64,000 nt of DNA, taken from NCBI GenBank assembly GCA_016906335.1, contig JADEYG010000002.1:1178001-1242000 (forward strand). The letters are read 5' to 3'. A program made the position numbers and the translations under genes. The number at the start of each line of letters is the position of its first letter. Within the stretch, counting starts at the first letter, position 1. The notes beneath the pieces are model-generated. The model was given only the letters and a program-made list of their open reading frames with translations. It did no database searches and was not told the DNA's origin. The stretch is from Novakomyces olei. Its lineage: Eukaryota. Positions 12,302 to 61,100 of this stretch are shown here, piece by piece.

Positions 12302-13572
12302 TCATACAGTAGTATCTTCCCGTTTAACAGCAGCCTCCTCAATCTTGACTGCACCTTCAACGCCTTCGGGATACGCTCCATGCACAACGAGTTGATCAAC
12401 ATCGTTTGTTTCATATTTCAATGGTTTGCTCTCCACTTTCTCCTCGCCTTCCACCTTGCCATGCAGCAAATGAGGAGCCGCATTGGCTTTTGCCAGAAAA
12501 GGCCGTAACGGACACGTGCTGGCGTCAGACAGAGCGTGACGCGTAGAAGCTGCACAGCGCTGGCACGACTTTGCGTGCCGAATAAGCAGTATGTGCAAAG
12601 CGTATTTTACATCGTTCGGCACTCGCACATCTAAATGGTGATGAGCTTGGTCACGTGAAGCTCGAGCAGGCACCCAGCCAAGAGCACGTGTTAACCGGTA
12701 AACATGAGTATCAACGGCAAAAGAATCGCGTGCCAGACAAAACAGTAAAACGCAAGAAGCCGTTTTGGGTCCAATACCGTCAAAAGCAATGAGCTCCTCC
12801 ATAGCTTGCCTGTCCGAAAAAGTGGGCGAGTGCATATGATCCAGCGAGTATACTCCATAGCGAGAATAAACGGCCTTTAAGATTTCCTGGATACGACGGG
12901 CTTTGATGTTTGCCAGGCCGCCGCTTGCAATTGACTCTGCTACTTTTCCCACAGGAGCATTAGCAATTGCTTCCCAATTATGCCGTCCAAAGGCAGAGTC
13001 GAGTCCGAGTTTTGCACGTGAAGAGTTGGTATTGGTAGTCTGCACATTAGCAAAATGGTAAAAAAAAAAAAAAAAAAAAAAAATAGGCATAAACAGACTA
13101 AAATTGAATGGCAAACGAGTTGACAAACGAGCAAAATAACGAGTAAAATAACGAATTAGACAAACTGCAATAGTCCTAAACGTACATTTTGCGAAAGAAC
13201 AGTGCGCACTAGTGCGTCAAGCACAGACGGCACCTGACCACAATTGCCAGCGTCACTGTCTTCATGCTTCGTCAGAGCCTTTGCATCGGGTCGCTGAGGC
13301 ATTCCATGTCGGTCGACGAGGGCGCAAAGCACAGCGCGGCACTCTTGCGCTGATGGACGGGCGAATTCGGGGAAGGGAGATACGCCGAACGCATCGTCCA
13401 GTACTTTGAGTTTTTTATTACGCTGAGGCGAACTTTCGCCAATATTTGTGCGTGCACGTGAGCGTTTTGGCGACGCGACTAGAGCGGCTGTGGCCTTTGG
13501 AGCAGAAGAGGCAGCGGCGGCAGCGGCAGCGGCAGCGGCGGCGGCAGCTGCTTTCTGCCTTGTAACGGCCAT
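12302..13572 (-). CDS. HhH-GPD superfamily DNA glycosylase (endonuclease III-like); intron 13040-13185
   Basis: VLDALVRTVLSQN|TT, GGLANIKARRIQ, DGIGPKTASCVLLFCL, FAVDTHVYRL, HAKSCQRC...CPL. Confidence 0.9.
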
Positions 13573-14190: not shown

Positions 14191-14813
14191 AGAGAGCGGA
14201 TCACCAATCTGGTGTACCACGAGATCGGGTAGATCGATCGGAGATATCTCAAAACTGAGCGTTGGCTGTATATATTATTATACAGATATTTAATCTTTTC
14301 AGATGCACACATAGCTATTATTATGGTAGGTCACTTGTCATTTATTCCACGCCCAAACAAGTAAGTATACAAGCGGTTTCCATTTATTATGAAACCGTTC
14401 TACGCTACAAGATTGCCACCAATGAATGATACACATATTATTCTGCGCTAGACAATCGAGGATGGTGGTGGTGACCAACGAGCCCCGAGGGCGTTACAGC
14501 TACATTGCACCTTTTGCGATATTGAAAAATCGCAATCGCAGTCAAGTGACGTCAAGACAATTTTGGGGACTTTATCAGCGTTTAGAAATGTTAAATATTT
14601 AGAAAAATTAAATATTGCGAAAGGTTAAATATTAAGAAAGATTAAATAATAAGAAAGGTTAAATATTAAGAAAGATTAAATAATAAGAAAGGTTAAATAT
14701 TAATATTAACGTTCGATGTCCACAGTAGAGGTTCGCCGTAGATTATGTGCACTCGTTTTTCGCGTGAATAATTTCCACGTGGTCGTCGTCTCCATATCGA
14801 TCGCGAGATCGAT
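14191..14813. promoter_or_regulatory. Candidate White Collar Complex (light/clock) elements upstream of frq
   Basis: GATC cluster at 14199, 14223, 14232, 14236 (GATCGA at 14232). Inverted repeat ATCGATC-N4-GATCGAT at 14796-14813. Function inferred from the Neurospora WCC GATCGA-type motif. Confidence 0.5.
14586..14708. repeat. AT-rich ~17-nt tandem repeat (AAGAAAGRTTAAATAWT) upstream of frq
   Basis: About 6-7 visible degenerate copies. Confidence 0.85.
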
Positions 14814-15492
14814 TAGTCGCCAAACTTGTTAATACATGATTTATCTATATTTAAGTATATGTACAGTTTACATTAGGAGTTATGTTACTTTTATACTAGT
14901 ATGCGAACCTGTATATAGGTAGAAATCTAGATTGTGATCCAGCAAGATCGTGCGACAAGGGACGCAATGCCGCCGTATGTATTGAGGACGGGGCAATAAA
15001 AGAAACGTGTTTAGACGTTTAACAAAGACAGCAGTATTGTACATTTGACATTTGCATATTGAGCATTGAATCATATCGAAAGGGCTGACTCGACGCAACC
15101 TTTTATCGGTACTCTGAAGCAGATTAAAATAATTAGCACGTCGTTCGGCCTACAACAAATCAGCCAAGTCAAGGATCAGTTGACAACAACATTATAAACC
15201 AATCGCTCGCTATTCAACGGTTGTTTTGTTAAACTAGAACGACACAGCCGACAAGTGGAAACAAAAGTTTGGCAGCGAAATCAAGTGATAACGTCCGTTG
15301 ACCCGCCGAAAAAGTCGTGAAATATTCTAAAACAGCTTCCGCTAGGATTCAAAGTCTATTTTAAACACTGACGGGTTTGCATATACGTCAAACTATATTT
15401 AGGGTTGCTCGACGCATTTATCCGAGTAAAGGCAAACTATTTTCGAATGATGACCAGCTCGTTCACTTGCTCCGATTAACATTTCTCTATCG

Positions 15493-18400
15493 ATGCAGGC
15501 TACGAACAACAGCTCTAGTCGGCCGAGTCGCCGTAGCGCACCAATCGAAGGCTTTAAGCCCGCCTTTCTTGATTTGGCCTCGCGCCCTCGCTTTGACCAT
15601 TCGCCTTTACCTTCAAGCGCTTTGCCCTCTACCAACTATACTTCGCTGCCTGCTGGATATGGCGTCACAACTGCTATTAGCAAACCTCATTTTTTCAGCA
15701 AAGACGATGCTCTTGGCTCGGTCACAGGGGTATCATTCATTATTTTTGATCAAATTTTAAGCTTATTTTTTTTTTTTTTTTTTCACTTTGACCTTTTCAT
15801 ACTAGGGACAATACTTACCCTTGAAGATGCCTAGCGAATACTATACGCAGCCTGCTCCTACGAGAAAATCCGAGGATTGGTTTGGCGATTTCAACTAGCC
15901 TGCCAATGTCCCAGAGACAATGCATCTTCCCGTCAGCTCAATCGATAAAGACAAGCCTTATTTTCAAAAGCACGTGACACAGCCAAAGAGTGGTCATAAA
16001 CGCCGAGCTCTCTCCTTCGAGTCGCGTGCTATGCGTCACCCGTCTCGGCAAAGTTCGTCATCAAAACGAAGTGCAGAGCCAAACGATGGACCAGTTGCTT
16101 TGGCGAGTAGTTCCGTTGCGGGTACGGCTTATAATGGATCAGAGCCAAGAGGCCGAGTACGGCGGAGAAGTGAGGAGGAAGAAGATGTTTACCGCAGTGT
16201 TATCGATGACTTGACTGTGAAAATCCAGCACATGCGTCGCAAAATCCGTAAACTGGAAAGCCGTGAGGCTCGACGGCTCAAACAGGATACACTGTTTGAA
16301 GTCCGTTTCCACCGTCTCGATAGTGAAAGTCGGGAAAGATTGGAGGAACTACTGCGCAATTTCACAGTCTCACTGCCCTCCAGTGCCGACATGAGTTTCA
16401 ATTCGAGTACGGCTAGGTCTGAAGATAGTGTACAGGCATCAAATTCTGGATCTTCAGCTATGATTACGCCATCTTCAGCACAACTTGGCAGACTTGTGGA
16501 AAGTAAACCGCAAACTGCTCCGGAATCGGCTGCTAGTGGATCACAATTCGATTCAGGGTTTTCGTCCATGTCTTCTGGCATGGAGGGGTATGGTGGCCGG
16601 GAAAGTACGCATTGTAATTTAGCGTCACAGATGGTGGATGATGCAGACCATAACTCTGACGTCAAAAAAGCGTATAAAATTATGTTGATGATCGAGATTG
16701 TCCTTTCCGAAGTAGCTACCGGCACCGACAGGGCGGTCGAGAGAGAAGTGCAAAAGAAGCCACACAGACAATTTAACCAGGAGGGCACGGAAAAGTCGTT
16801 TGGCGAAGCTTTACCATCCCCAAAGCCCGGCTTTCCACCCTTAAAAGTTCGGCTGAGCCTGGAGAAGCAAGAGAGTTTGAAGAAAATTGGCCTGCTCATC
16901 CCCTCGTTGCTGAACGGGGTGTACGAACGTTCCCTATCACCTTCTGGCCCGAGCTGGCTCGATCTCGCTTCAGTATGTGCAATTGCAAAGTCTTGCAATA
17001 TCAGCCTTTGCGAGTCGGATTTGCGTAACGCAATCTTGCGGTTTAGCAGGTCTCTCATCCTGAGTGCCGACAATAAGAGCGTGCGGTACGCAGGAACGCC
17101 CTTTGAGACAACCGGGTCAGCGGCCACTGACTCGAGAGGGTCAATGAGCACATACACTGGCGGCAGCAGCAGCAGCGGCGGCTTTTCCGATACGCAAAGG
17201 GCAAGAAGCCGTGTGCAACAACAGCCAAATGAACAAAAACCCCAGCCTGGAAATAAAAAAGACAGTACTCCCTTTGCCGTTAACGAAGCCGGCAGCCATG
17301 GAAGAGCCTCTCCACGATCAGCCTTGTCCGGAGCCGATGGAGGCAATCCCGTCATATACACTCCAGTACTGGCAAAATCTCAGCGGTCAGCTTCAACGCT
17401 GTCCGACACCGATTCTGGTTTCTCTGACAACGATGAAGAGGGTGCAGCGGCAGCGGCTACAGACACACACAGATCGTCGATAGACGCTCGTGTTTCAAAT
17501 GGCGGTGGCCCAGTAGTGTTTTTCAACTGCGGCCAGTTTTGTATAGACTTGTCGAGGCAGCCGGTCTCGCCACACGCACGGAGGTACTCGCCCGAGTATG
17601 AGCGGGTCTTTGTTGAAGAGCCATTAGGCTCTACAACACAGTCTCCTTTGCATTTAGCAGCTACCAGCGAGAAGGCAGGTGCCTTTCCCTTGCCCTTGCC
17701 CTCTACTTTTCCCTTTCTACCACTGACGCAGTCCGGTGTGGACGAGAGCCAGTTTGTACTTGTACCCGAGGCAGACGAGAAGCTGTGTGAAGTGAGGAAG
17801 CGAGCCTCCTTGGAGAGCAATTTCAAAGAGCCCAAAGAGCCCTACGCTCTTGCCGGCTTCAGTTTTCCTCCGCTCGAGTCTGGAGCCGTGGACACTCGCT
17901 ACATGCAGTCACTGCCGATGCAGGCTTACGGGACCTGTCTCCTCGTTGACCATCTCCAGTTCCATGTCGTTGACGAGTACTGCAAGATCCCAGTGGAGAC
18001 ATCTAGTGCTCATGTAATGGACAACCGAGTGCACAACGAGTTTCTTGCTGACAAGGGTATAAGGCATATGGTTTACGAGTACAGACTGGCGAATGCCTCG
18101 AGGCACAGGTTCGTTTTCCGTCAGCTGTTCAGTCTGCTGTTTCTGCTCCCGTCCTCTACGGGAGCAGCACTTGCCTCTGCAGCAAAGCGGCCCGTCTCCC
18201 TGGCCGAGCTGAGACAGGACTCGGACGGATCGCTGAGCGATGGGTTTGACTCGTTTGGATCCAGTGCTGCTTTAGAGGCAAAGCCGGACAGCAGCATCGA
18301 CTGTGATGCTCACAGTACACTGCCTGCAGGTCCTTTGGCTCCTATAGTGCCTTTGGCTCCTATAGTGCCTTTGGCTCCTATGGCTCCTATGGCTCCTATG

Positions 18401-19084
18401 GCTCCTATAGCCAATCGTGTAGGAAGCACGTCCAGTCGCAACGAGTATATCGACTCGAGCAAGCGGGACAGCGGGTCAATGACAGACATGGAAGTAGAGT
18501 CCTGCTCCTCTTCTTCTCAGCAGTCACTGTCCCTTCAGCCAAAGGCCGCTGATCGAGCAGTGCCAGTGGACAGGACAGCCACGACACAGAGCTCGCTTTC
18601 GTCTTCAAGGCAAAGCCGCAATATCCACGAGACACTGCTGGGCAAACTGGCACGTGAAAACAGCAAAAGGCAACAGCCGACTAGTCAGACTCTTGTTACA
18701 CACGAGAGCCTTGAACGGACGCCGACAGAGTCCTTTGGTGAAGGCGGTAGTGACCACTCCTCGGATTATTACGTGTCGGGCGCTCTGGCGGACAGGGTTT
18801 GTCCTCCAGACGCGAGTCTAATGCCCTCGAGTGCTGTTGAGAGCGGCCGAGATGGAGATAGTGCGGGAGAGCCTCCGAGTCTGCTCTCCAACATTGACGC
18901 AATGCGCCAGTTTAGGGATATAATGGGCCAGAGAGTCGTGCAAGCATCTCTGCAGTTTTCTCAGCAATGGACAGAGTCTCTGCATTTGCGGCCGACGCCA
19001 ACTGCCGCTCAACAAGGGCCGAACGAGACGGACGCAAGCATTGATGATGGATTTGACAGTAATGCCAGCGAGCGGTCTGCTTAG
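15493..19084 (+). CDS. frq: FREQUENCY circadian clock protein homolog. Uninterrupted ORF 15920-19084; upstream exon 15493-15729 and intron 15730-15805 are in frame but separated by TAG at 15896-15898
   Basis: FRQ motifs: PYFQK, YRSVIDDLTV coiled coil, LFEVRFHRL...LEELLRNF, LSADNKSVRY, GPVVFFNCGQFCIDLS, DHLQFHV. Ser-rich and largely disordered. Confidence 0.88.
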
Positions 19085-19267
19085 GGGGGTTTGTTTATTC
19101 CGGCAAAAGGTTTATGATGTTTATAATGATGATGGTGATGATGGTGATGATGATGATGATTAATGGTTGTGATTCGGTTTGCATCAGATTGAATCATACA
19201 AATACTATAATTTGGGTAGCATAAATAGCACATTATAATTACACCTTGGGTGATATTATACTTTGCA

Positions 19268-19786
19268 AGGGCGGTCTAGTAGATTAAGTTGGCTGACAAG
19301 GCAATTATTTGACAGTTATTTAGATTGGCCAGTAGATTCAAGTTGGCTAACAAGGCAGTTAATTTGACAGTTGTTTAGATTGGCCAGTAGATTCAAGTTG
19401 GCTAACAAGGCAGTTAATTTGACAGTTGTTTAGATTGGCTACTTTTAGATTGGCCAGTAGATTCAAGTTGGCTAACAAGGCAGTTAATTTGACAGTTGTT
19501 TAGATTGGCTACTTTTAGATTGGCCAGTAGATTCAAGTTGGCTAACAAGGCAATTAATTTGACAGTTGTTTAGAGTGGCTACTTTTAGATTGTCTACTTT
19601 TAGATTGGCCAGTAGATTCAAGTTGGCTAACAAGGCAATTAATTTGACAGTTGTTTAGAGTGGCTACTTTTAGATTGTCTACTTTTAGATTGGCCAGTAG
19701 ATTCAAGTTGGCTAACAAAGCAGTTAATTTGACAGCTGTTTAGATTGGCTACTTTTAGAGTGGCTAGTTTAGATTGGCTAGGGTTA
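19268..19786. repeat. Composite minisatellite: 55-nt unit x~7 interleaved with 15-nt TAGATTGGCTACTTT subunits, between convergent frq and aconitase 3' ends
   Basis: Units start at ~19268 (degenerate), 19321, 19376, 19446, 19516, 19601 and 19686. Confidence 0.95.
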
Positions 19787-19890: not shown

Positions 19891-22869
19891 TTAAGCCAAT
19901 ATTTCAAGCTCGCTGATGCGCAGGACAGTGTACGGCTGTTTCTGTGGCACTGTGCGAATGTGCCGCCGCCTCTTTCGGTGGTTAATTTTTAGAATAAACT
20001 TTGACTTTGTCTGCTCAATCACAGTAGCAGTACAGCGGTACAAGCTCTCGCTGATAAAAGGCTTTCCGTGCAGCGTAAAGTCGCGCGTACCCAGCCGCGT
20101 TGCCTGTGTGAATCTGATACGCTGTCCCACACGGACTCTGCCACGTAAACGTACCGGCAGCGTTACTTGGTCGCCCCGGGTCACCATATACTTTTGCGAG
20201 TGCAGTTTTACCACAATGTACGGCTGCGGCTGTGCACGCATCCGCTCCAAGGCGCGCCTCAACGCCTCCTGAGCACCCGTGTCTCTTTCAGTACCCGTGT
20301 CTCTTTCAGTACCCGTGTCTCTTTCAGTACCCGTGTGCCTTTCAGTACCCGTGTGCCTTTCAGTACCCGTGTCTCTTTCAGTACCCGTGTCTCTTTCAGT
20401 ACCCGTGTCTCTTTCAGCTCTGGCGGCAGTGTGCATCTGCCTTTTGGCCAAATTGGCTGCTTGTGGAGCACTACCGACTCGCTGCGTTTGGGCACGGTTA
20501 CGGATACTATTCAGCGCGGAACCGGCGCGGAAAAACTCGAGCTGATCGGGCGACATTGTATGCTGTACCGGGATGGTAAACTCCACCTTATTTCCGTCAC
20601 GTTCACCTTCCACACATAAGGACACGGGCCCCGTGCCCTTATTGACAAGGCTAACGAGCCCGAGTGTACGCACCCGGTCTCCGGCACGGAGCACATCAAA
20701 GTCCGCCTCGTTGGCAAACGTGAGAGGCAGCATTCCCTGCTTTTTCAGGTTTGTTTCATGGATACGGGCAAAAGATTTTGCCAAAACTGCTTTGCCATTC
20801 ATAGCCCTGGGCTGTAAGGCAGCATGCTCTCTCGCACTGCCTTCGCCATAGTTGTGCTCTGCCACAACCAGCCAGGGCTGGCCACGGTCTTTTAACCGCC
20901 ACAGCCAGTCTGGAATCGAGAGCTTTTCTCTTGTGTTTGCCTCCGAATCATAGGCAGTATTAACCTCTCCCGTCTCTGCGTTTACGGCACCGATAAGCGT
21001 ATTGTTGCAAATATTGCTCAAATGGCCCTTGTACTTGAGCCATTTTCCGGCTGCTGAAATATGGTCAGTCGTGCACTTGCCTTTTACCCTCAGTGCCACT
21101 ACCAGATCCAGCTCTGCACCCGTCCAGGCGGGGAAAGGCTGCAGCAACTCGAGCCGGTCGCTGGCCGGATCCACCGCCACAATGACACTCGCGTCCCCTG
21201 ACGCAGGCGCAGCAGCCGGCAGGTAAGCAATATTGCCAGCATCAAACCCGGCACTCGGCAGTTGCGTGCCCCGCGGTGGGCGGAAGCGGAACTCGCTGCC
21301 GTCCGGAGCCACAAGGGAATCATTCACCGGATCAAAGCCCAAATCAGAGGCAAATATCTTGGCCGCCACTATCTCGGGACTGGCTAAAAAATTCATTGTC
21401 TTGGCATTGCCGTCGTTACGGGCCCGGAAATTACGGTTGAAGGAGGTCAGGATAGCATTGGTTCCTTGCTCGCTCTCGTCGGGTTTTCCGTCGGGTTTTC
21501 CATCGGGTTTTCCGTCGGGTTTTCCGTCGATTTTTCTGTCCCACATGCCGATACAGGGCCCACAAGCGTTGGCCAGCACGGTTGCGCCTGCCTCACGGAG
21601 CTGTGCGGTTAGGCCGTCGCGTTCAATAGTAGACCGGATCTGTTCCGATCCGGGCGTAACCAAGAACGGCGTCTTTGCCTTTAGGCCGGCAGCGGTTGCC
21701 TGGGCAACCACGTCAGCCACACGAGTCATATCTTCATAGGAGGAATTGGTACAGGACCCAATCAGCCCGGCGCTGAGCTGCTGAGGCCACTTGTTGGCCT
21801 CAATCGCTTTGCGAAAGCCGCTGAGAGGCGTTGTCAAGTCAGGCGTAAAGGGCCCATTCACGTGCGGCTCTAACCGGCTCAAATCTACATGGATGACATC
21901 ATCGTACTCGGCTCCCTCGTCGGCAGTGAGGTAGTTGTGGTCCGTGTGAGCTTTACGTGCCGCCTCTGCCACTGGCGCTCGTCCCGTAGAGTGCAAGTAA
22001 GCTTCCATGCTGCCGGTAAAGGGAAACACGGAGGTGGTAGCGCCAACTTCTGCACCCATATTGCACACTGTCGCCATCCCCGTGGCACTCAGCGTCTCCA
22101 CTCCAGGGCCACAGTACTCGAGGATTCGGCCAGTGCCGCCACGGACGCTTAGCCGGCCGGCGAGAGTGAGAATGAGATCCTTGGGCGCTGCCCAGCCGGA
22201 CAGCTGCCCCGTCAAATGCACTCCAACGACTTTAGGGCATTTAAGCTCCCACGGGGTCGCTGTCATTGCGTCAACGGCATCGGCTCCTCCGACGCCGATG
22301 GCAATCATGCCCAGTCCACCGGCATTGGGAGTGTGAGAATCCGTGCCCAGCATCAAGCCGCCAGGCGCAGCATAGTTCTCAAGCACAATCTGGTGGATAA
22401 TACCCGAGCCAGGGCCCCAAAACTGTATACCGTAGCGGCGAGCACAGGACTGTAGGAAATCAAAGATCTCCTGATTGCTGGCAATCGCGTCCCGCAAATC
22501 TTGAGCGCCTCCTTCCCGTCCAACGATAAGGTGGTCGCAGTGGATTGAGGCATCCACGAGCGTCCGATCGAGACCACAGGTCATAAATTGTAAGAGTGCC
22601 ATCTGTGCAGACGCGTCCTGCATTGCCACTCGATCAGGGCGCAGTTTCAAGTAAGACTCGCCACGCGGAGCGGCAGCTGCTTCGGACGAGTCCCACAGGT
22701 GGGCAAACAGGATTTTTTCCGCCAGCGTCAGCCGCCGCGGGCCAAGTACTCGGCGAACTTGAGCCAATTTGGCTCCCAGCCGTTTGTAGGGAGGCGTAAT
22801 GCGCCCATAGTCTGGCGCCGGCGCCAGCTGCGCCATTGAGCGGGCACCGCTGCGTGAAAGAGCCTGCAT
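19891..22869 (-). CDS. ACO2: Mitochondrial aconitase-family protein (Aco2/homocitrate dehydratase type) fused in frame to C-terminal mitoribosomal protein bL21m
   Basis: DRVAMQDASAQMA, HCDHLI, GTDSHTPNAGG, GSCTNSSYED, ACGPCIG, WLKYKGHL (Aco2-type K). The last ~115 aa (YIVVKLHSQKYMVTRGD...GTRDFTLHGKPFI...YTVLRISEL) match the bL21/Mrpl49 pattern. Confidence 0.93.
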   Translation of the reverse strand: MQALSRSGARSMAQLAPAPDYGRITPPYKRLGAKLAQVRRVLGPRRLTLAEKILFAHLWDSSEAAAAPRGESYLKLRPDRVAMQDASAQMALLQFMTCGLDRTLVDASIHCDHLIVGREGGAQDLRDAIASNQEIFDFLQSCARRYGIQFWGPGSGIIHQIVLENYAAPGGLMLGTDSHTPNAGGLGMIAIGVGGADAVDAMTATPWELKCPKVVGVHLTGQLSGWAAPKDLILTLAGRLSVRGGTGRILEYCGPGVETLSATGMATVCNMGAEVGATTSVFPFTGSMEAYLHSTGRAPVAEAARKAHTDHNYLTADEGAEYDDVIHVDLSRLEPHVNGPFTPDLTTPLSGFRKAIEANKWPQQLSAGLIGSCTNSSYEDMTRVADVVAQATAAGLKAKTPFLVTPGSEQIRSTIERDGLTAQLREAGATVLANACGPCIGMWDRKIDGKPDGKPDGKPDGKPDESEQGTNAILTSFNRNFRARNDGNAKTMNFLASPEIVAAKIFASDLGFDPVNDSLVAPDGSEFRFRPPRGTQLPSAGFDAGNIAYLPAAAPASGDASVIVAVDPASDRLELLQPFPAWTGAELDLVVALRVKGKCTTDHISAAGKWLKYKGHLSNICNNTLIGAVNAETGEVNTAYDSEANTREKLSIPDWLWRLKDRGQPWLVVAEHNYGEGSAREHAALQPRAMNGKAVLAKSFARIHETNLKKQGMLPLTFANEADFDVLRAGDRVRTLGLVSLVNKGTGPVSLCVEGERDGNKVEFTIPVQHTMSPDQLEFFRAGSALNSIRNRAQTQRVGSAPQAANLAKRQMHTAARAERDTGTERDTGTERDTGTERHTGTERHTGTERDTGTERDTGTERDTGAQEALRRALERMRAQPQPYIVVKLHSQKYMVTRGDQVTLPVRLRGRVRVGQRIRFTQATRLGTRDFTLHGKPFISESLYRCTATVIEQTKSKFILKINHRKRRRHIRTVPQKQPYTVLRISELEILA
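20273..20417 (-). repeat. Coding 18-nt repeat x8 (ERDTGT/ERHTGT) in the aconitase-bL21 linker
   Basis: Visible array TTTCAGTACCCGTGTSYC on the + strand. Confidence 0.95.
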
Positions 22870-27061: not shown

Positions 27062-28872
27062 TTATGCCTGTTTTTCCATGGCGCTCTCAGCAGTGCTTTC
27101 AGCAGGGCTCTCAGCGGTCTCCTTCCCTTGGGGGCAATATGTTCCATCTGGCTGCAGCACACCGAGTCGGTCGTACAGCGTACGTGCACGAACATACTTG
27201 TCCAGTATCCAATACTGTAATCCCAACACGCGTGCCACATTACTACGCTTTTGTGCGTGGGGCGAATCAAGTGTCGTTGACCGTTCAGAGGCCCATCTAA
27301 TAGTCAAATCCTCATATTGCTTGTAGTACGCACTGCGCTCACGCAAGATTTCATCACGGCGCTTTGTGTCCTCCTGGGCCTCGTTCTCGCCCGGCTGAGG
27401 CTCTGGGTATTCGTAGCTCCAGTTCATTGGACCACCCAGCTCCTTGATAATCTCACTAGGCTCAATAAACTTGCCGAGATCATTCAAGTTGCGAGTAAAT
27501 TGGATCTTGCTCGCCACGACAGGATCAAGCCATCCTTTAATGATATTCCAAACGCCCTGGAATACCCACGGCGCCTTGTGAATGAGCAAGACGCCAAGCG
27601 ACTCGGGGTAATGCGCTTCAAAACATTTTATTATAAAGCGTACAGGATTGTAGTCCATGTTGGCCAGCTTGTAGAGTTAGCAAAGACTTGCAACAAAAGA
27701 TTTGATGGGTAATCGTTGGCAGAGTCTTTCGTATAGCCACATCGAAATAACAACAAAAAAAAAAAAAAAAAAAAAAAACCAAATATTTTACTCACCGAAA
27801 AGTCAGTCATATCGAAAATAACGCACGCAGTGTCAACCGGAGGTTTAAGCATGAGCCTCCCCGTCTCCATTACGTAAACGGTAAACTTTTCAATCGTGGC
27901 ATCGTCCTGTTCCTTTGGTTTGTGCAGGCGGACACGCACATAGCACAGAGGCCGGCCACGTTTGTCCGTGCCGTGGAAGAAGCTTTTGCCTACACGCATC
28001 TGTTGTAGGAAAGGCTCATCCTTGTCCAATGCGCCTTCCTCGCCCGTCCGGAGAATAGCATCAACGTCAAGAACCTTGACTCGCCAATGCATAGACGCCA
28101 CCATCATGACTACAGCTTCGCCAACGTCCCATTTGCGAGCGCGTAAAAACCGAAGCAGCAGCGAATCTGGATCATCGCACTTTACCAGGCTCCAAAACGT
28201 CTGCCGCAGCTCTTCCGGAGACTGATTTTCCAAAGCTTCGAGGTACTCGAGCCGAGACTGGTACTTTTCTTCCTGTTGCAACGCGCCCACTGTACTGGCC
28301 TCACTGCGGTTTGAAGAGGCAACCGAAGTCGCAGCTGAAGTAGCGGTTGAGCCAGTATTACGTCTCAGCAGTCCACGGCGACGTCGAGCTGGACTCTTTT
28401 CTTCAGGCACTCCAAGCGTACCGTCAGAGAGCCCATAATTCGCTCCGTTTTCTTCTCCGTCTTCGCCCATTGCACGTTTACGCTCGTCAGCTGCATCAGG
28501 CCGCCCAAATATTTGCAGTACTCGGGCCCACATGTCCTTCAGAGCCTCGTTCTGCTCTACTGTTAAATGACCAGGCCTGCCTTCCGCGACCAGCGGTGCC
28601 GGCCCACTGTCGTCATCCAGACGAATTGCTCCTCCCGCACCAAAAACGAGCGGGAGCGCAGCGGCAAAGTACCAGTAGCGTGAGCTGCCATACCCTCGAT
28701 CATGGTGAGCAGTACTTTCACGGTGCCTGATCTGATCGCTGTGCGGTCTGCAAGCATACCCTACCGTCGTCGCTGCCGCTGCAGAGCCGGCAATTAGTGG
28801 CAGCGCTACGCGCCCACGCGCCACTGAGGCGCTACGCGCCGCAATTGCTGTCCGCACTGCTCCGCTAGACAT
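27062..28872 (-). CDS. CSR1: Sec14/CRAL-TRIO phosphatidylinositol transfer protein, Csr1/Sfh2-like; intron 27668-27795
   Basis: PDSLLLRFLRARKWDV, GTDKRGRPLCYVRVRLH, FDMTDFS|LANMDY, EAHYPESLG, WLDPVVASKIQFT, YWILDKYVRARTLYDR. Confidence 0.85.
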
Positions 28873-33569: not shown

Positions 33570-36394
33570 CTAATTCTTTGAGGAAGTATTCACCCAGTAC
33601 TCGGCGTCCCCCGGGCTATCAGACCCCCGTAGCCTCGAGTCGTCTGTCGTGGCCAGAGGCGAAGCCGTTGAGGCCAGACTGCTTGTAGCAGTACCACTAG
33701 CGGCACTAGCGCTAGCGGCACCACCCCGCCGAGCATTATTACCAGCCCCGGCTGTTTCAGTATCAGGACTGGCACTGCTATTCCTGCTAGAACCGTTGCC
33801 CTTACTTCCTCGGCGCTGGAGCACCATCAGCTTAGCCAAACGCAGTCCGCAGCTGTTGCACAAGGAATGCTTTCCGTCCGGATCGCGTCGCCACTCGGGC
33901 GTCTCACTGCGCCCACAGTTTGCACAAACACGATTAGACTGCCTTTGGTGCCGTACCTGCTGGTGACGGATATTGTTGGAGGTAATTCCATCAATTTCCT
34001 GCTGTAATCGCCGATTGGCCAGCCGCAGATGCTGAATCTCATACTGCCAGCTGGTGGACCGTGTGGCTTCCAGCTCCATGTATATACTCTCATCAAGACT
34101 ATGCTCCTCAACGCTCATTGACCGCAGCTGCGGCCTGACAAAGGCAACATGCTTCGACATTCCGGCTGCTGAAGCCGAGTCCATCAGGCTCTTGGGCAGT
34201 TGGCTCACTGGCGAAGCTTTGGATCGTGAGTCAGGGAGTGCCGCAGTACTATCCGCATTTGCCTCACTCAGCTTTCTTCCTGGTTCCCCATTGGCCGCCA
34301 GTTCTTGTTCAACGGAAGGGTTCATTTCTCTACAGCGCATTATTATCGTACGCACACTACTGCTCAATGGCTTGTCAGAGTCAGGGTAAAGGGTTGTCAG
34401 TACTTCAACGCTCTTGCCACTTTTACAGTTCAGCAGGTGCCGGACGTTTACTATCTTGCCCCGCCGAGCTCGTCGGAGAGCCTTGTCAATTCTTTCTTCG
34501 CCCTCTCCACGTGAAACTTCTTTTACATTGAGACCGTACAAGTCTCGACTCTCAAAGTCAATGAAGCGACTGCACGTAGACGCAACAAAGAGCATTATTC
34601 CATCCGCTGAAATCTTGGCCCAAAACTCATTCTCCTGTATCTGCGATTTTTGCAAGACATCACGCCATGTGAGCGAGACAAGAGGCCGCTGCCTGCCAGC
34701 AAGAACTATACATTTACGGCCTCGTCCAGGCTCAATATTGAGCCGCCCTACGCTCTCGAGCCACATGTAGCTCGAATTCTTGCGATGGACACGAAACAGA
34801 AAGCTTACCGCGTCACTGCTCGAAGACGCGTCCCTTAGAATTCGCATTACAGAGACAATATCGCTCGGGTGGCAGATGGAGGATAAGCCCAGGCCAGTTA
34901 TTTCGTCCGACTCGTACTCCAGGATATTGCGACAGGAGGGAGAGGCGTACAGGATAACGCCTTTCAGAGAGAGAATATAAATAAAATCATCCGCCTGCTG
35001 TAAGACTGCCTCGTACTCTTTGCCTCCAGACATGGATACGTTCATCGGCGATTTGCCGTCTGTCCGTGCATCGCGCCGTTTCCGTTTCGTTTGGAATTGG
35101 GGCAGCGGCTCCAGTTCTTTGGGGAACGACGTCATTTGGTAGTTGACGGCGTACGTGCCATCTAATCGTTAGCCGTGGGAAAAGTAGGGAAACAGAAATA
35201 GAATAAATTAACGAGAAAGAATCAAGATAAAAGCTATCAACGAAGATTCGATGGACAACAAGACAGACAGGCAATGCACAAATCGAATTCCAGATATAAT
35301 AAACAAAAACAATGATACACGCAATACGTACCCTTCATACGGTTCATAATAGACTCTGGCTGCTCGACTAAATCAACCTGAAACCCCACGAAAAACGAAA
35401 CCTCTCCGTCAATATGGGTGCTGACGGGGATAATAGTGAGCAAATTTATAAAAGGCTGTCCAGATTTGCGATAGTTTATAAGCGACACTTGAGCCTCATC
35501 ACCAACATTTTGCTGATGTTTGAGAAAGGATACGGCACTTTCGTCGGTGTATATCCGTTTTGAGCCCTTTGTGACATTACCATCTGGTGCTTGCAGAAAT
35601 CGGCAATTCTTCCCCACAATCTCATCCATAGTGTAGCCCGTTAGCTTTTCAAAGTTAGGGCTAGCATAAACAATTGGAAAATCGGGTTCCCGGGCGGAAG
35701 AAACAACAAACGAACAAGACATGTCGACCGGACCAATATTGATTTTCGGGTCCCGACGCATTGCTACTCGCATCTAAAAATTAGTACTATAAAACCGTCC
35801 GCCAAAACTTACGAGAATGCCCAACAGATCAAACCCGGTAGAGGAGTACATGCCTGCAAACCCTGGCCGATCAAGACCCAATGGCTGAGCGACATTCTGA
35901 GCCCCGTCAATATGTAAATTCTGCTTTTTTTGCTGCTGCTGCTGCTGCTGCTGTTGTTGCGTATGCAAATCAACACCTTCAGTAAAAGGCGAGTCCGGGT
36001 AAGAGCTTTGCCGGCTCAATAGAGCGTCTGAAGTAGCAACGCTCGACTCCTCGTCCTGCACGCCTGCACGAACAGCAGACGCGATGGGCCGCCTGTACTG
36101 CATTTTTAAAGGATCACGGTCAGCTGAGTGCGTCGCGGGCAGAGTATGATCGTCGTGGGCGGAAAGGCTGTCACGCTGATTGTTGGTAAAGAACGGATTA
36201 GCACTCGGCCCATCGTCTTCAAAATTCTCAACAAACAACGAAAAGTCTTCATCCTCGGCACTGCCGTCGCCCACAGTCGGATCGGGAGCAGCGGCAATGC
36301 CGAAGCCGTCTCGGAGACTCCGATCGGGTTCCTCTCCGTCGCTGCCGCTGTTGGCAGCGACAGAGAAAATCTCGTCGGCTGATAAATTCAGCAT
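33570..36394 (-). CDS. wc-1: White Collar-1 blue-light photoreceptor/transcription factor (LOV, PAS-B, PAS-C, GATA zinc finger); introns 35774-35812 and 35162-35331
   Basis: YSSTGFDLLGIL|MRVAMRRDPKINIGPVDMSCSF, GKNCRFLQ photo-cysteine motif, INYRKSGQPFINLLTIIP, CHPSDIVSVMR, TSWQYEI, CANCGRSETPEWRR...LCNSCGLR, poly-Q. Confidence 0.96.
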
Positions 36395-38317: not shown

Positions 38318-41300
38318 TCATTGCTGCGAAGTAGCATCGGTTTTACTCGTGCTGTCTCCGGCACCACTCCACTCCTGCTCAAGTGCCGCTAACAGTACGG
38401 GTAAGCGTCCATGTGCATTGTAATCGGCCTCGGACTGGATAACCTCACCCTGCGCAGTTGTAGTTACTACCGGCAAAGGCGCTTTCTGGTGTGTCATTGC
38501 TGCAGAAACGGCCTCATCCGAACCGGAAAAACAAACCGCTGAATATTCAGGTCGGCCATATGGTAAATGCTCCTCAAAGAAACCCACAGTCGGACCAGAA
38601 GGCGGAGCCTTTGCAGCCGCTATCGGAATACTGCCACGCACATCCGACTCACTGAACGAATGATCTTCTGGATCTTGCACGGAAGGATGAACAGTAACAG
38701 GGCCTTTAGCAGCAGCAAAAGCATTATCCACTGGAGCGGTAAAACTGGCACGACGAAGTGTATCCACAGGCTCTTCTTTCATGCGTACAGGCTCGTCAAA
38801 ATAGTACAGTGGGGGTCCGTTTGACACTGCGTTTTGCACCTTATCACCGGCAGGTCCTGAAGAACCAGCACGATTCCGGTCTGCATGTAATACGGGTTTG
38901 CCATTGTCGCCTGCGGTAGGAGACGAGGATACGCGGGGTTCATCGTCGGATTTCTTCAGATTTTTAATATAAAAATTCTTGATTTGTGTAGCCGTCTTTG
39001 TCGTGAGTTCTTGTGCGATCGCAGTGAAATCCGTGCCATGCTGAGCAACCAAGGCTTTTAGACTATCAATCTCCGGATGTGACCAATAAGAGGACTTGTT
39101 TGCACGCTTTACTGGTTTATGTCCACCCGGCTTGGAGTCTGGACCTGAAGTCTCGGCATTTTCTTGAACAGCCACGCCTGCCGCCGAGCTTTGATCCATA
39201 TTGGTTGGCCGATCAGATGTATCAAAAGAATCTACCGCAGGTTTCACACTATTCCTGCGCTTTGAAACGCGTTCCGGCCCTGGTGTTTCCGGACTAGAAT
39301 TGAATTTGCTTCCCGATTTAACTGCCTGATCATTGCCGCCAGCTTCACTTGCTGATTTGTTATTGTTATTGCTATTTATATTAATATTATTATTATTATT
39401 GTTATTATTATTATTGCTGCTGGTGGTAGTCGAGCTTTGTGCTGCCTCTGTGGTATCATTCCCCGATACTTCTACTGCATCTTCCTGGAAATCTTCAACT
39501 GGAGCAGCAGCAGCAATGTCTGTCATTAAAGCCGAGCCCTTTGATTTCTTGCGTTGCAAAGGAACTCGGCCAGACTTGCCGCCTGCAGAAGATGCTGCCT
39601 TCTTTCGTTTACGCATGCCTCGCTCGCGTAATTTGGATCGGTACTGCTCTTGCTTCTTTGTCATGTAATAATGCAAAATGCACTGCGACGTTGTTTTGTT
39701 TGGAAGGTACTCTGCAATCTTACCAAACTGCTTTGCAAATTCCGAAAATCTCTGTTTAAAGATCTCATGCTCTTCATCCGTCCAAATGTCGATTGGTCCG
39801 TTATAGTGATAATGGGTCATGGGATCGTTAACCACCCGATTCCTATCGTCAAACCATAGGGAAACTTTAAGATCATTATCTAGAATCATGTCAGGAATAT
39901 CAGCAGTAGTTCGTTTTAAAAAGTCTTCTGTGCTTTCAGCGGCAGTTTCGCGCTCCAAGTTGGCAAGAATCTCTAGAAACTCAGCCTCAGAGCGGACTGC
40001 GTCGCCATGGGCAAAGGAGCCTCCACCAACACCTCCACCACGACGTGAACTGCGTCCAACCGTTGCTGAATATGGGGTATCGTCAGCCAAGGCGGGTTGT
40101 GCCATTTCCCGCTCATTACGTTCTTTTTGCCTATCGAGCTTCCGAGTGTACGCTTTCCAATCTCGATAAATGCTTTTGTACTCTTCACTGAGCAAACGAA
40201 CTTTTGAGCGCAACGCTTCTTCATGCTCGGATAAGTAGCCATACAGCTTTGGCAGTAATGCTTCATAGTCCTCCTGCTCTTTCCGGAAAAAATCGTACCT
40301 GTCCACAAAGCTAAGCTGCTTATTGGTAATTTGATACTGCTGAGCATCATTTTCTAGTTTGATTTTCTTATTGCATTTGTAGATGTCTGCAATAATATCT
40401 TCTTCCTGATCACCGGTAGCCTTGTCTGTACTCGCCGTGGGACTGGTAGCTTCTTCACATATCGGCACGCTTTCAGAAACGAGTGCAGTAACACTGGATT
40501 TCGGTGAAGATTTCGGTGAAGGTTTCGGTGGACTTTCTTCCGTGGCTTGTAACAGATTTCCCTTGCCGTCCAACTGGCGGTCCTTCTCGGTATATCCTGT
40601 CTCTGTATCTATAGCGGATTCTGCATCAACCTTCCTCTCCAATTCTGAGCGTACTTGCCCATCTGCAGTCGGAAGCAAGTCTGGCTTCGAATCCAAGTCT
40701 TTGCGCTCCATGTCAGTTGCCATCGGCTCTGAAATTGGCTCCTTTGAGGGTACACACGCCTGTCCTGTCGCATCACTTAAAATTCCAGACGACGAGGCAT
40801 CCGGCAGTTGTGCCTTTGCGTCCAGTCCAGGCTCACCAGCTTGATCCGGCTCATAAAGCAATTGTGGTTCAGTCTTTATTGCAACATCATCCTGCTTTTG
40901 TACACTAGTTTGGGAGGAGGGCAAACTTTGTTCCGGTGCACCAGCCTGTTTTTTGAGCATATCGCCTTCATCCCGTACCCGCCGCTCTCTCACACCACCG
41001 TCTTCAAGAGCCTCCCTCTTTTTGTCAAAAGAGGCTCGTGCAAAAGAGACTCGTGCAGAGGAGGCTCGTGCAAAAGGGACTCGTGCAGATTCGGTTTCCG
41101 CCAACTGCACTTTCCCGCTTGGTGTAAAAGATCTAGCACTGGCCCTGTCTGTCCCAAAACTCCTTTCTGGCCCCGAGTAGCCCCGGGGCCGAGTTGGCGG
41201 ATTATCTGGATACGGATACTTGCCACGCACACCGTCTGAAGCAGAGCTGTACGCTCTAGACTCCGTATTTGCTCGATCAGAGAACGAGTCCTTGTGGTCA

Positions 41301-50577: not shown

Positions 50578-51452
50578 ATGCCGGCTATTGGAACGCAAAA
50601 GCGCAAAGCGCGCAGCAGTACAGAAACTGATGAGACAAATACCGAAGCACGTAACAAAGCATCTCGAGCTGATGCCGCGGCTGATGGAGCGATAAAAGAT
50701 ACTGAACATGATAAAACCGCGTCGCAGGCCTCAACGGACGCGCAAGAAAACCCTTCGACCACGAAGGATCAGAGACTAATAGTTGTACTGGACAAGGCAT
50801 GCCTTGAAATTTTCAAAGCCGGCAGCAGCAGCGGTGGCGAAACAAAGTACCAATTGCTTAACTGCGACGACCACCAAGGCATTCTAAAGAAAATGGGACG
50901 AGATATAGCTGATGCGCGGCCAGATATTTGCCATCAGTGCTTATTAACTTTGCTCGACTCACCTTTAAATAAAGCAGGAAAATTGCAGGTCTACATTCAT
51001 ACTGCGCAAAACGTGTTGATTGAGGTTAACCCTGCTGTGCGTATTCCACGGACTTTTAAACGATTTTCAGGATTAATGGTCCAGCTGCTTCACCGTCTAA
51101 GTATTCGTGGAGTAGGCGGGAATGACAAACTGCTAAAGGTTATAAAGAACCCCATCACCGACCATTTGCCTCCAAACTGCAAAAAAATTAGTAAGTTTTC
51201 CAGATTTGCGATTGTACTAATGCCGAAGCACTCTCATTCGACGCGGAGCCTGTCCGGCTTACAAAGTATATCCCACAGCTAGAACCAGGCCAGTCGATTT
51301 GTGTTGCTATTGGTGCAATGGCCCACGGATCAGACGATTTTGCGGATAGTTGGGTTGATGAAAAAATTGCTGTTAGCGAATACAGCCTCTCTGCTTCCGT
51401 GGCGGCGAGCAAGTTTGTACACGCGTGTGAAGAAGTTTGGGACATTCTATAG
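50578..51452 (+). CDS. EMG1: 18S rRNA pseudouridine N1-methyltransferase Emg1/Nep1; one intron ~51191-51228
   Basis: [60 protein letters not shown]. Confidence 0.95.
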
Positions 51453-58383: not shown

Positions 58384-60839
58384 CTAACTTGAGACGGGAC
58401 CAGGACTATGCTGGGCCTCGTCTGGCATCGCTTTCTTGTACAGCGTCTCCACCATTTGCTGAATGTGTTTGACTTTCTCTTCCACACTAGCAATACGGTC
58501 AGAAGGCTCATCGATCCCGGATTGACTGTCGCTTGCAACCTCTTCATCAAGCTCGTATTCCAGATTATTGCCCGGACTTTCTTCGATTAAAGGCCCTTGA
58601 GAATGTCCGTATTCCGCTACGGGCAGTATTGATCCGACTCCAGCGCCCACACCTTGGAACCCTGCACCACCAGCACGCATAATGACCCGGCGGTTAGTTC
58701 GCGACTGTTTCTTGGCTCGATAAAGCTTCCTCTGCGTAACGTTAGACGGGCGATTGGGAACACGATTTTGAAGATGCTGAGCATGCTCAACCAGTCTGAT
58801 TAATAGTGCCAATGGCCCATGTGTAATGTACAGAATCCAGAGTTTTGCCTTGAGAAATACGGGATGATCATCGCTCACGAACGCCCCGACAGGCACGAAT
58901 ATGACTTCCAAAAGGTTAAATGGCGGGTACAGGCACACGAGATGATCCGATTTTGTTGCTTCCAAGACCATTGTCGAGAACTAGAAAGGGGACCATTTAG
59001 CCGAGTCAGAACGATAACGTAAGCTAAATTAAAATAGGGCATTATTAAATCTCTTTGCTTTTACATCCCAGTATCTTACCACAAACTCATACTCTTGCCT
59101 TGCGTTTGACATAACTTTGGCAAAAGTGTTTGACAAAATCGAAATGAGCACCTTGCCAAATGTTAGCTGACAGAAATCAATGTATTGAATCCTTACCGTG
59201 CCCATAAGGATATTTGTAAGAATTATGTAGAGCATCTGCAATTAGTTTGAACTCTGGAACGCATTTATTTTGTACCATCACAGGCGGGCCAAACACAGGA
59301 TGGATCCGAAACATGTTATCAAACCCGTCACTGGCACCACCAAAAAACACATCAAGCATCAGCATGAAAACGTCTTTGCGGGCTATGTCTCCCCAAGCCT
59401 ATATCGAATTAGTGTACAGAATTGAAGGAGGTTATTGTCCATACCAAAGCCCTGAAGCAGACAAAGAAGCCTAAAAATAGAGCAATAATCATGCCCATGA
59501 ACTTTATAAAGTCCGCCATCAGATGCCGAACGCAGGGCAAGAGGGTACCAAAGTAAGGCAAGACAGAGAACAATGAGAGTATCCTGGAGAACAAAATAAA
59601 GGGAAACGTAGGTTAGTTTATCGGTTTATTGATCGGTCTCTTATGCGCCCTTACCTGGGTATCAGGAACAAACCCTCCAGCGAAAGAATATCGTACGGAA
59701 GCCCAGGCGAACCCAAATCGTGTCCCAGCAAAGCTATGGTCCTCGTAACAATCCAGGCTAGGAAAATAACAACAATTGACATATCAAACAAAGCCCAGAA
59801 ATCTTCTACATAGAAAGAAAGGTGACCGGCTTCCGCAATCTCCTCTATTTCGCCCCAAATAAATGCAGAAAAGTACACATCAAGAAGGATTTCTAGCCAG
59901 AGAGATGCTGCTGATCTGCGAGACAGAACGAGAGTGTAAAGCGCAAACAGTATACAATAATTTACACTTTGTATAGCCAGATTGTATTTCGGTACGCGTA
60001 AACGACTGTAGCTCGAAACCAGACCATGATGAGCCGCAGCATCGTAAAAGGCCGCTCTTTTAACCGCCTGTGTCTCAATGTCGTTCCAAAATACAATGTC
60101 ACCTGCAATTTAGTTTTGTTTATGGGTAAAGCCTGTCGGCCGTATTTTATTCCTGCACTATTCCTTCGATGAATTTCGTATGATATGCTCGGCCTTGTGC
60201 CTTTGTACCTACCCCGCCAGATGCCGTCAATAACTTTTTGAACGTACGGAGACGATATGAATAGTTTAGCTTCCGCTAGTAAAGCAATTTCGAGGCTTGA
60301 AAAAGTTTCAATGCGTCGTAGCAAGCCACTGATCTCTTCGTCGGATCCTATCTCATCTTCATGCTCATCGTCTTGTTCGTGTCCTTGTTCGTTCCCGCTG
60401 GAAAAAGACGAAAGCTCGGGAAACTCGGTCGTTAATACGCGTAAGCGAGCTTCCTGTTTATAGTACCGCAAAACACGGATGGCAATAATCTCGGCCGCCC
60501 AAGCTCTGTTTATTAATATGCCAATAATTGACTCTTCAATCATTACCTTGCTGCCTGGCTGCTTCGACCGTTTTCCGAGTCCAAACCCTCGCCGTCCTGT
60601 AGCCGCAACCAGATCAGAACAAAGACAGAATCGGCACGACCAAGGGCCGCTACTGCCTTGACAATTGGCAGGATCAAGTCGTTCGCTAACGGCGCTGTCC
60701 GTAAGTCGTCCAAGGAATAGACATTGTTCCCAATGGCTCTTTGCAGCACAGACGCCAGGCTCAGTGCAAACTGCGGAGTCGGCGCTTGGCCCTGCAGCCG
60801 CGACAGACTCGCTTTTGTCTTTAAAAAGGTGCGCGACAT
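58384..60839 (-). CDS. YVC1: Vacuolar TRP cation channel, Yvc1/TRPY1-like; multiple introns
   Basis: AEIIAIR, SSLEIA..EAKLFIS..VQKVIDGIWRG, SRLRVPKY, PYFGTL, GPPVM, LISILSNTF, PPFNLLE. Confidence 0.82.
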
Positions 60840-61100
60840 TGCCCGGAAGCCGACAGTGTAAAGTGATGTTATTTGAGGGACGGAAGACAAGAGTCTATTG
60901 TGCTTTACAATTCTATAGATACATTTCAGAGTCAATTCTTCTTTACTCTAACAACGCTTACTATAAACACATTTACAGAGCCAATTGTAGAGCCAATCCA
61001 TAAGAGAAATACACCTTTGACGCGAAATGACGAGGCTCGTGACGCGAACGCTGTTGGAACAGAATAATTGTCGTGCGTGACACTGCTTACTAGTCGTATA

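Follow-up and report, generated by a model that had tools for sequence, protein, structure and literature searches.

Organization of the frq locus

The window analysed here is a stretch of 64,000 nucleotides from Novakomyces olei (contig JADEYG010000002.1, positions 1,178,001 to 1,242,000), whose + strand carries at window positions 15493–19084 the frq gene, which encodes the frequency clock protein FRQ. The body of the gene is an open reading frame (ORF) of 1054 codons that matches the Pfam FRQ family PF09421 with an E-value of 7.4e-22 and a score of 77.8 bits (cut-off 26.6), the best matching stretch being limited to profile positions 117–254 of 983. Further 5', the ATG at 15493 opens a translation of 79 codons that extends to position 15729, and the frame starting at 15806 reads GQYLPLKMPSEYYTQPAPTRKSEDWFGDFN-TAG-PANVPETMHLPVSSIDKDKPYFQK and runs onward into the 1054-residue FRQ ORF. 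Once nucleotides 15730–15805 are removed, the two upstream segments (15493–15729 and 15806–15895) form 109 codons in the FRQ frame, and the sole interruption between this upstream frame and the FRQ ORF is a TAG at 15896–15898, with C as the next base. The coordinates, the translation and the single in-frame TAG given in a preliminary description of the locus were all recovered as stated when the sequence was read again. The WF...N motif, the PPF/PYF motif and the YRSVIDDL motif of the coiled coil are present in the order typical of the family, the first of them on the 5' side of the TAG. The features of the locus are summarized in Table 1.

The TAG at 15896–15898 is a genuine genomic stop codon. 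Four public DNA runs (X1–X4) were compared, as assembled contigs (Logan), with positions 14500–19500 of the window. A contig of X1 (depth about 1100), a run that may stem from the source sample, spans 15840–18361 with 0 differences, and a contig of X2, from another study and with another organism label (depth about 4), spans 15797–16783, also with 0 differences; X2 matches the window exactly over all 12 of its pieces, about 4 kb in total. Near the TAG, X3 covers 15922–16072 and two other pieces, with the TAG itself outside, and X4 covers next to nothing. The compared runs list 0 variants anywhere in frq. Two samples, each from a different study, have the TAG in their contigs, which excludes an assembly slip, and the sequencing error that the preliminary description had allowed for is refuted. 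A sense codon concealed by a sequencing or assembly error can be dismissed almost entirely: the independent X1 and X2 contigs both read the window sequence across the three bases, and nothing was found in favour of an error, though the T run at 15766–15783 does break contigs. The X1 contigs also break at 15840 and 15869, and a 60-nt piece in 15810–15869 is shallower (depth 947 versus 1106) and without a variant.

Table 1. Features of the frq locus, in window coordinates.
Feature	Position	Strand	Remarks
Putative exon 1 of an ancestral long-FRQ extension	15493–15729	+	ATG with T at −3 (weak); 79 codons; SRRSAP; recognized by coding score and alignment
Putative intron, 76 nt	15730–15805	+	GTATCA...T18...TTGAC...TAG; a +1 frame shift joins exon 1 to the FRQ frame
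Continuation of the extension, 30 codons	15806–15895	+	EDWFGDFN motif (15872–15895) at its end; in-frame ATG at 15827
In-frame TAG followed by C (UAG-C)	15896–15898	+	Variable position in the family; present in X1 and X2 contigs
Out-of-frame ATG in weak context	15906–15977	+	23-codon ORF overlapping the FRQ start
FRQ body, 1054 codons	15920–19084	+	ATG with A at −3 (good); PYFQK, YRSVIDDL and FCIDLS-type motifs; ends at TAG 19082–19084
Predicted hairpin	15876–15907	+	A15897 is the last loop base; stability no better than shuffled sequence (z 0.02)

The upstream frame as the N-terminus of FRQ

Comparison with FRQ relatives supports the view that the N-terminal extension is a coding sequence, or was one until recently, and that it corresponds to the true FRQ N-terminus. 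An exhaustive phmmer search with the protein read through the stop retrieved 304 library proteins at E ≤ 0.001, the closest with about 30% identity. The alignments of the two best matches, P0126 (E 4.9e-29, query residues 20–612) and P0127 from Kalaharituber pfeilii (E 5.2e-24), start at query residues 20–21, before the stop at residue 31, and run to about residue 610; the next named relatives are Rhizina undulata (Pezizomycetes) and Dactylella cylindrospora (Orbiliomycetes). A W[FY]...N motif lies within the first 400 residues of 77 of the 153 FRQ-like proteins examined, and most of the other 76 start close to the coiled coil and have the appearance of short or truncated models. The window sequence RKSEDWFGDFN was aligned onto this motif (compare RKSAAEDWFNTFNC in P0149 and EDWFSDLNR in P0126). 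WF...N is found at 3 of the window's 127,996 six-frame positions, and the more specific [DE]xWF...N at a single one, namely here.

The case for homology is carried by the full-length alignments, the motif and the position of the motif, not by a test with a broad hidden Markov model (HMM). In that test, an HMM built from 50 N-termini was run against 2438 six-frame peptides of the window; exon 1 received no score, and the 30-residue piece encoded by 15806–15895 scored 5.1 bits (E 4.4) when taken alone. Addition of the upstream part leaves the PF09421 score nearly unchanged (78.3 versus 77.8 bits). Relatives carry about 100–190 residues before the WF motif, and the likeness of exon 1 to them is confined to SRRSAP, which corresponds to an RR.[AP]P motif at their N-termini. 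A word-indexed protein search with the read-through protein gave 3 weak matches at 6% coverage and no close relative, and a scan of metagenomes with the FRQ ORF gave 55 pattern matches, of which 0 were confirmed. Scanning metagenomes for EDWF.D[LF]N by means of a degenerate DNA pattern yielded at least 119 stretches; PPF or RSVIDDL followed downstream in 0 of the 119 listed, which are thus chance matches.

The composition of the upstream frame resembles that of the gene body. The coding score is +0.12 bits per codon for exon 1 and +0.15 for 15806–15895, compared with 0.139 for the FRQ ORF and a maximum of 0.045 among 875 off-frame windows. Exon 1 and the FRQ ORF both have a G+C content of 53%, against 20% in the putative intron and 40% in the upstream region 15000–15492. 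The earlier suggestion that the extension is or recently was under selection gains support, in its coding aspect, from the family-wide WF...N motif, the alignments and the codon usage. The identification of the gene as frq and the conservation of the motif likewise hold; the comparison with Neurospora that accompanied them has been replaced here by one with retrieved homologues.

We infer from the sequence that 15730–15805 is removed by splicing. The position of this intron and its joining of the two frames were as proposed in the preliminary description, which had also called the intron canonical; that part does not hold, since GTATCA is not a usual 5' splice site in the window. The 5' splice site GTATCA and the branch sequence TTGAC are weak in comparison with other intron-like elements, three of which start with GTAAGT or GTGAGT: a T-run intron at 27668–27795 on the − strand (GTGAGT...T24...GCTAAC...AG) and two short elements of the form GTAAGT...TACTAAT...AG, at 35812–35774 on the − strand and at about 51191–51228. 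Other choices would also keep the frame, namely a donor at 15721 instead of 15730 and an acceptor at 15826 instead of 15805. If the intron were retained, the ORF from 15493 would end at the TAG at 15832–15834 after 113 codons. Runs of 18–24 T on the coding strand were noted in several intron-like elements (15766–15783 on the + strand, 27755–27778 and 13060–13083 on the − strand), and long T runs may be a habit of the longer introns here, the short introns (38–39 nt) being without them.

A different exon–intron structure, in which exon 1 is unrelated or untranslated and the motif belongs only to a 23-codon ORF from the ATG at 15827, is highly improbable. It would fit the departure of GTATCA and TTGAC from the GTAAGT...TACTAAT of other elements, as well as the restriction of the exon 1 match to SRRSAP, the failure of the broad HMM to find exon 1 and the barely raised Pfam score. 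It is opposed by the FRQ-like G+C content and codon usage of exon 1, which is a 79-codon open frame amid an AT-rich region, and by the drop in G+C across the 76 nt; the availability of several in-frame splice choices, the presence of T-run introns elsewhere in the window and the number of residues that precede the motif in relatives all argue in the same direction. A short intron that would excise the TAG was considered as well. The lone GT after the W codon and no later than the TAG is at 15880, and acceptors at 15898, 15914 and 15916 would give introns of 19, 35 and 37 nt; these were rejected because they delete the conserved motif or run into a TGA.

Decoding of the interrupted frame

The reading that we favour, and hold to be about evenly balanced between right and wrong, is that the TAG is a tolerated and probably recent nonsense codon and that short FRQ is made from the ATG at 15920. 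An ancestor would have made long FRQ from the ATG at 15493, by way of exon 1, a T-rich intron of 76 nt and an exon 2 with the EDWF.D.N motif. A single genomic TAG would now end the long frame 7 codons before the in-frame ATG at 15920, from which the 1054-residue body would be translated, and efficient recoding would be absent. The organism would then produce mainly or only a protein of the short-FRQ type, and the former extension would be a 109-codon upstream ORF (uORF), a recent relic or else, on transcripts that start 5' of 15493, a de facto uORF.

Several features of the start region are consistent with this reading. The ATG at 15920 has an A at −3, whereas that at 15493 has a T. Of 76 relatives, 22 have a Met between the WF and PPF motifs, and a short form starting at 15920 is therefore within the practice of the family. 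The TAG takes the place of the residue directly after the N of the motif, which is variable among the 77 relatives that have the motif (N in 20, R in 14, E in 13, K in 10, Q in 6, and nine others); codons for E, K or Q can be converted to TAG by one change. In Neurospora, short FRQ, which lacks the N-terminal 99 residues, is described as a normal functional isoform (PMC10140173).

Other observations weigh against the favoured reading. On a transcript from upstream, five AUGs (15493, 15659, 15707, 15827 and 15906) precede the one at 15920, and efficient synthesis of the short form would then need a downstream transcription start. UAG-C is a leaky context at +4 that is shared by only one of 14 normal stops of the window, and the position of the stop accepts a wide range of residues, among them the Q, K and Y that near-cognate tRNAs can insert. 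The 109 upstream codons contain no second lesion and retain FRQ-like codon usage and G+C content. With 39 of the 981 possible single-base changes in these codons creating a stop, and with indels assumed to occur at 0.1–0.2 of the substitution rate, the lesion-free state has a probability below 5% beyond about 0.04–0.07 neutral substitutions per site. Therefore, either the TAG arose only recently, or the frame continues to be translated and to be under selection, whether through readthrough, as a uORF or as a separate peptide. Finally, the X1 and X2 samples may be one strain, so that their agreement says nothing on the fixation of the TAG in the species.

The wider alternative is that the TAG is a maintained recoding site, with long FRQ produced only by readthrough of UAG-C or, less likely, by editing, and with selection keeping the lesion-free, codon-optimised upstream frame open; we regard it as unlikely. 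Readthrough itself, leaky or programmed, with a near-cognate tRNA for Gln, Tyr or Lys yielding a low and possibly condition-dependent amount of long FRQ beside the short form, is rather unlikely. Its sole readthrough-friendly feature is the C at +4, which is the leakiest base at this position in yeast, where eRF1 is described as impaired about two-fold and tRNA-Tyr and tRNA-Gln read UAG-C (PMC6614816). The tetranucleotide is thus the same as in leaky stops of Saccharomyces cerevisiae, and its rarity among the ordinary ORF stops of the window, albeit in a small sample, would also fit a special role. So would the intact, coding-like upstream frame and the occurrence of Q (6), K (10) and Y (1) at the site among the 77 relatives. 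On the other side, the readthrough signal of the plant-virus type occupies the two codons that follow a leaky UAG, and the codons found here, CCU GCC, do not resemble it. The 120 nt from 15896 to 16015 are less structured than shuffled sequence (z +1.18; 183 of 200 shuffles are at least as stable). Basal stop-codon readthrough is usually low and would give very little long form. In contrast to leaky stops at the end of an ORF, the stop here is internal and N-terminal, and no known extended 3' signal or structure accompanies it. The readthrough-controlled isoform switch put forward in the preliminary description is accordingly not borne out beyond the base at +4. Reassignment of TAG was rejected, TAG ending 5 of the 14 long ORFs of the window, frq included; no tRNA genes were found in the window.

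Restorative A-to-I editing, by which UAG would become UIG and be read as UGG (Trp), with long FRQ made only at a particular stage such as sexual development, is very unlikely. Premature-stop-correction (PSC) genes of this kind are known from Sordariomycetes; the 71 of Fusarium graminearum are marked by an in-frame TAG in a conserved gene that is intact in all other respects, and the TAGs of such genes are said often to derive from codons other than TGG (PMC10776026). As in the PSC genes PUK1 and AMD1, the protein is largely disordered, and the U at −1 and G at +1 match the reported preference, but fungal editing favours A or G at +3 (PMC11156358), where frq has C. The edited base, A15897, would lie in a predicted loop. 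The hairpin reported earlier as 15877–15906 is indeed part of the minimum free energy fold, as 15876–15907, but 89 of 200 shuffled sequences fold at least as well, and Trp is found at the TAG position in 0 of the 77 relatives. Another difference from the PSC genes is that the downstream ATG of frq yields a near-complete protein without editing.

The host lineage is a further misfit. Among named proteins, the aconitase encoded next to frq is matched best by those of Taphrina, Schizosaccharomyces, Savitreella and Saitoella (64–67% identity), and the host looks like an early-diverging ascomycete of the Taphrinomycotina type, a placement that rests on this one gene. According to PMC11156358, mRNA editing appears to be restricted to Pezizomycotina and is absent from budding and fission yeasts (Saccharomycotina and Taphrinomycotina). 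Reading through TAG elsewhere in the window created extra ORFs of at least 250 residues, and the three examined look like introns or noise: in the White Collar-1 (WC-1)-like and EMG1-like ORFs that are lengthened in this way, the TAG or the break coincides with intron-like signals, and an ORF at 59962–60924 on the − strand has only a sub-threshold Pfam match, with TAGs in its first 10 residues. A further one, at 39916–40773 on the − strand, overlaps the ORF at 38318–40960. Taken with the base at +3, the insignificant hairpin and the lack of Trp among relatives, the lineage leaves the editing switch of the preliminary description unsupported.

It is also possible, though quite improbable, that the 109-codon ORF is itself kept by selection, either as a regulatory uORF that gates FRQ or as a free-standing N-terminal peptide of a split gene. 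The frame is intact and coding-like, and its stop is just 21 nt 5' of the ATG at 15920. The weak GTATCA donor would suit regulated splicing, retention of the intron giving the 113-codon uORF mentioned above, and the frq genes of Pyronema and Neurospora are described as alternatively spliced near the start codon (PMC3778014). A role as a uORF, on the other hand, needs no conserved peptide motif. Reinitiation after an ORF of 109 codons is normally inefficient in eukaryotes. A split FRQ was not found in a word-indexed search for shorter proteins with residues 1–300, which returned 0 matches among 4019 candidates. The fallback readings of the preliminary description, a uORF or a nonsense allele, are in our judgement more likely than the recoding it had placed first, which lacks both a significant RNA structure and a fit to the known editing hosts.

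Genomic surroundings and relation to known clock genes

Several elements around frq were noted in addition. A 388-codon ORF lies antisense to frq (16189–17355, − strand) and is probably a by-product of the codon composition of the gene. The upstream region contains an AT-rich tandem repeat with units like GGTTAAATATTAAGAAAGATTAAATAATAAGAAA at about 14590–14710, and two clusters of GATCGA-type repeats (14221–14250 and 14795–14816), about 1.27 and 0.69 kb 5' of the ATG at 15493. These clusters may resemble binding sites of the White Collar Complex. Four of the 23 matches to GATCGA in the window fall within 14232–14812, the total being no higher than chance (24.2 expected). A WC-1-like gene is located at 33570–36394 on the − strand, about 14.5 kb from frq; it encodes a PAS_9 domain of the LOV type (with NCRFLQ), another PAS domain and a GATA zinc finger, and appears to contain a 39-nt intron (35812–35774) that ends in an in-frame TAG. 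The aconitase belongs to a 992-codon ORF (19891–22869, − strand) in which it is fused to mitochondrial ribosomal protein bL21 via a DTGTER-type hexapeptide repeat. This fusion is common to the Schizosaccharomyces matches and was not seen in the Taphrina or Saitoella matches.

An FRQ-like sequence is noted in Saitoella complicata, also of the Taphrinomycotina (PMC7013081, citing Montenegro-Montero et al. 2015), and frq in a fungus of this type is therefore not new in itself. The arrangement of the start region recalls the long and short forms of Neurospora crassa FRQ, in which the N-terminal extension is present only in the long form, the short form arises from a second in-frame start and residues 71–99 of the extension are needed for long-form function (PMC10140173). 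The locus described here likewise combines an extension, a second in-frame start and a putative intron near the start region, and, as in relatives of the Sordariomycete type, a WF motif precedes and a PPF motif follows the internal Met. Two differences stand out. Neurospora has one uninterrupted frame, whereas here a genomic stop lies between the ATG at 15493 (after the presumed splicing) and that at 15920. The Neurospora intron covers the first AUG, and its temperature-dependent splicing picks the start (PMC3778014); the putative intron described here is inside the extension, 237 nt 3' of the ATG at 15493.

The frq gene of Pyronema confluens (Pezizomycetes), another early-diverging ascomycete, also encodes a long N-terminus and has a regulated intron near the start, with light-dependent alternative splicing over the start codon (PMC3778014). 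The FRQ proteins closest to that of the present gene likewise belong to Pezizomycetes and Orbiliomycetes, at an identity of only about 30%. In contrast to the present gene, no in-frame stop is described for Pyronema in that source. More generally, no paper was found that describes an in-frame stop in frq, although no search was aimed at that alone.

In the best-studied fungal clock, FRQ acts as the central negative element, with its long and short forms tuning the period and the temperature range. If the TAG were a maintained recoding site, the ratio of the two forms would be set by decoding, whereas in Neurospora it depends on splicing over the start codon. Readthrough or editing would make this the first recoding-based switch between clock isoforms, and editing in particular would extend fungal mRNA editing beyond Pezizomycotina. 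Should the favoured reading of a tolerated nonsense codon be correct, the locus would represent a natural experiment with short FRQ only, useful for asking what the region of the WF motif does.

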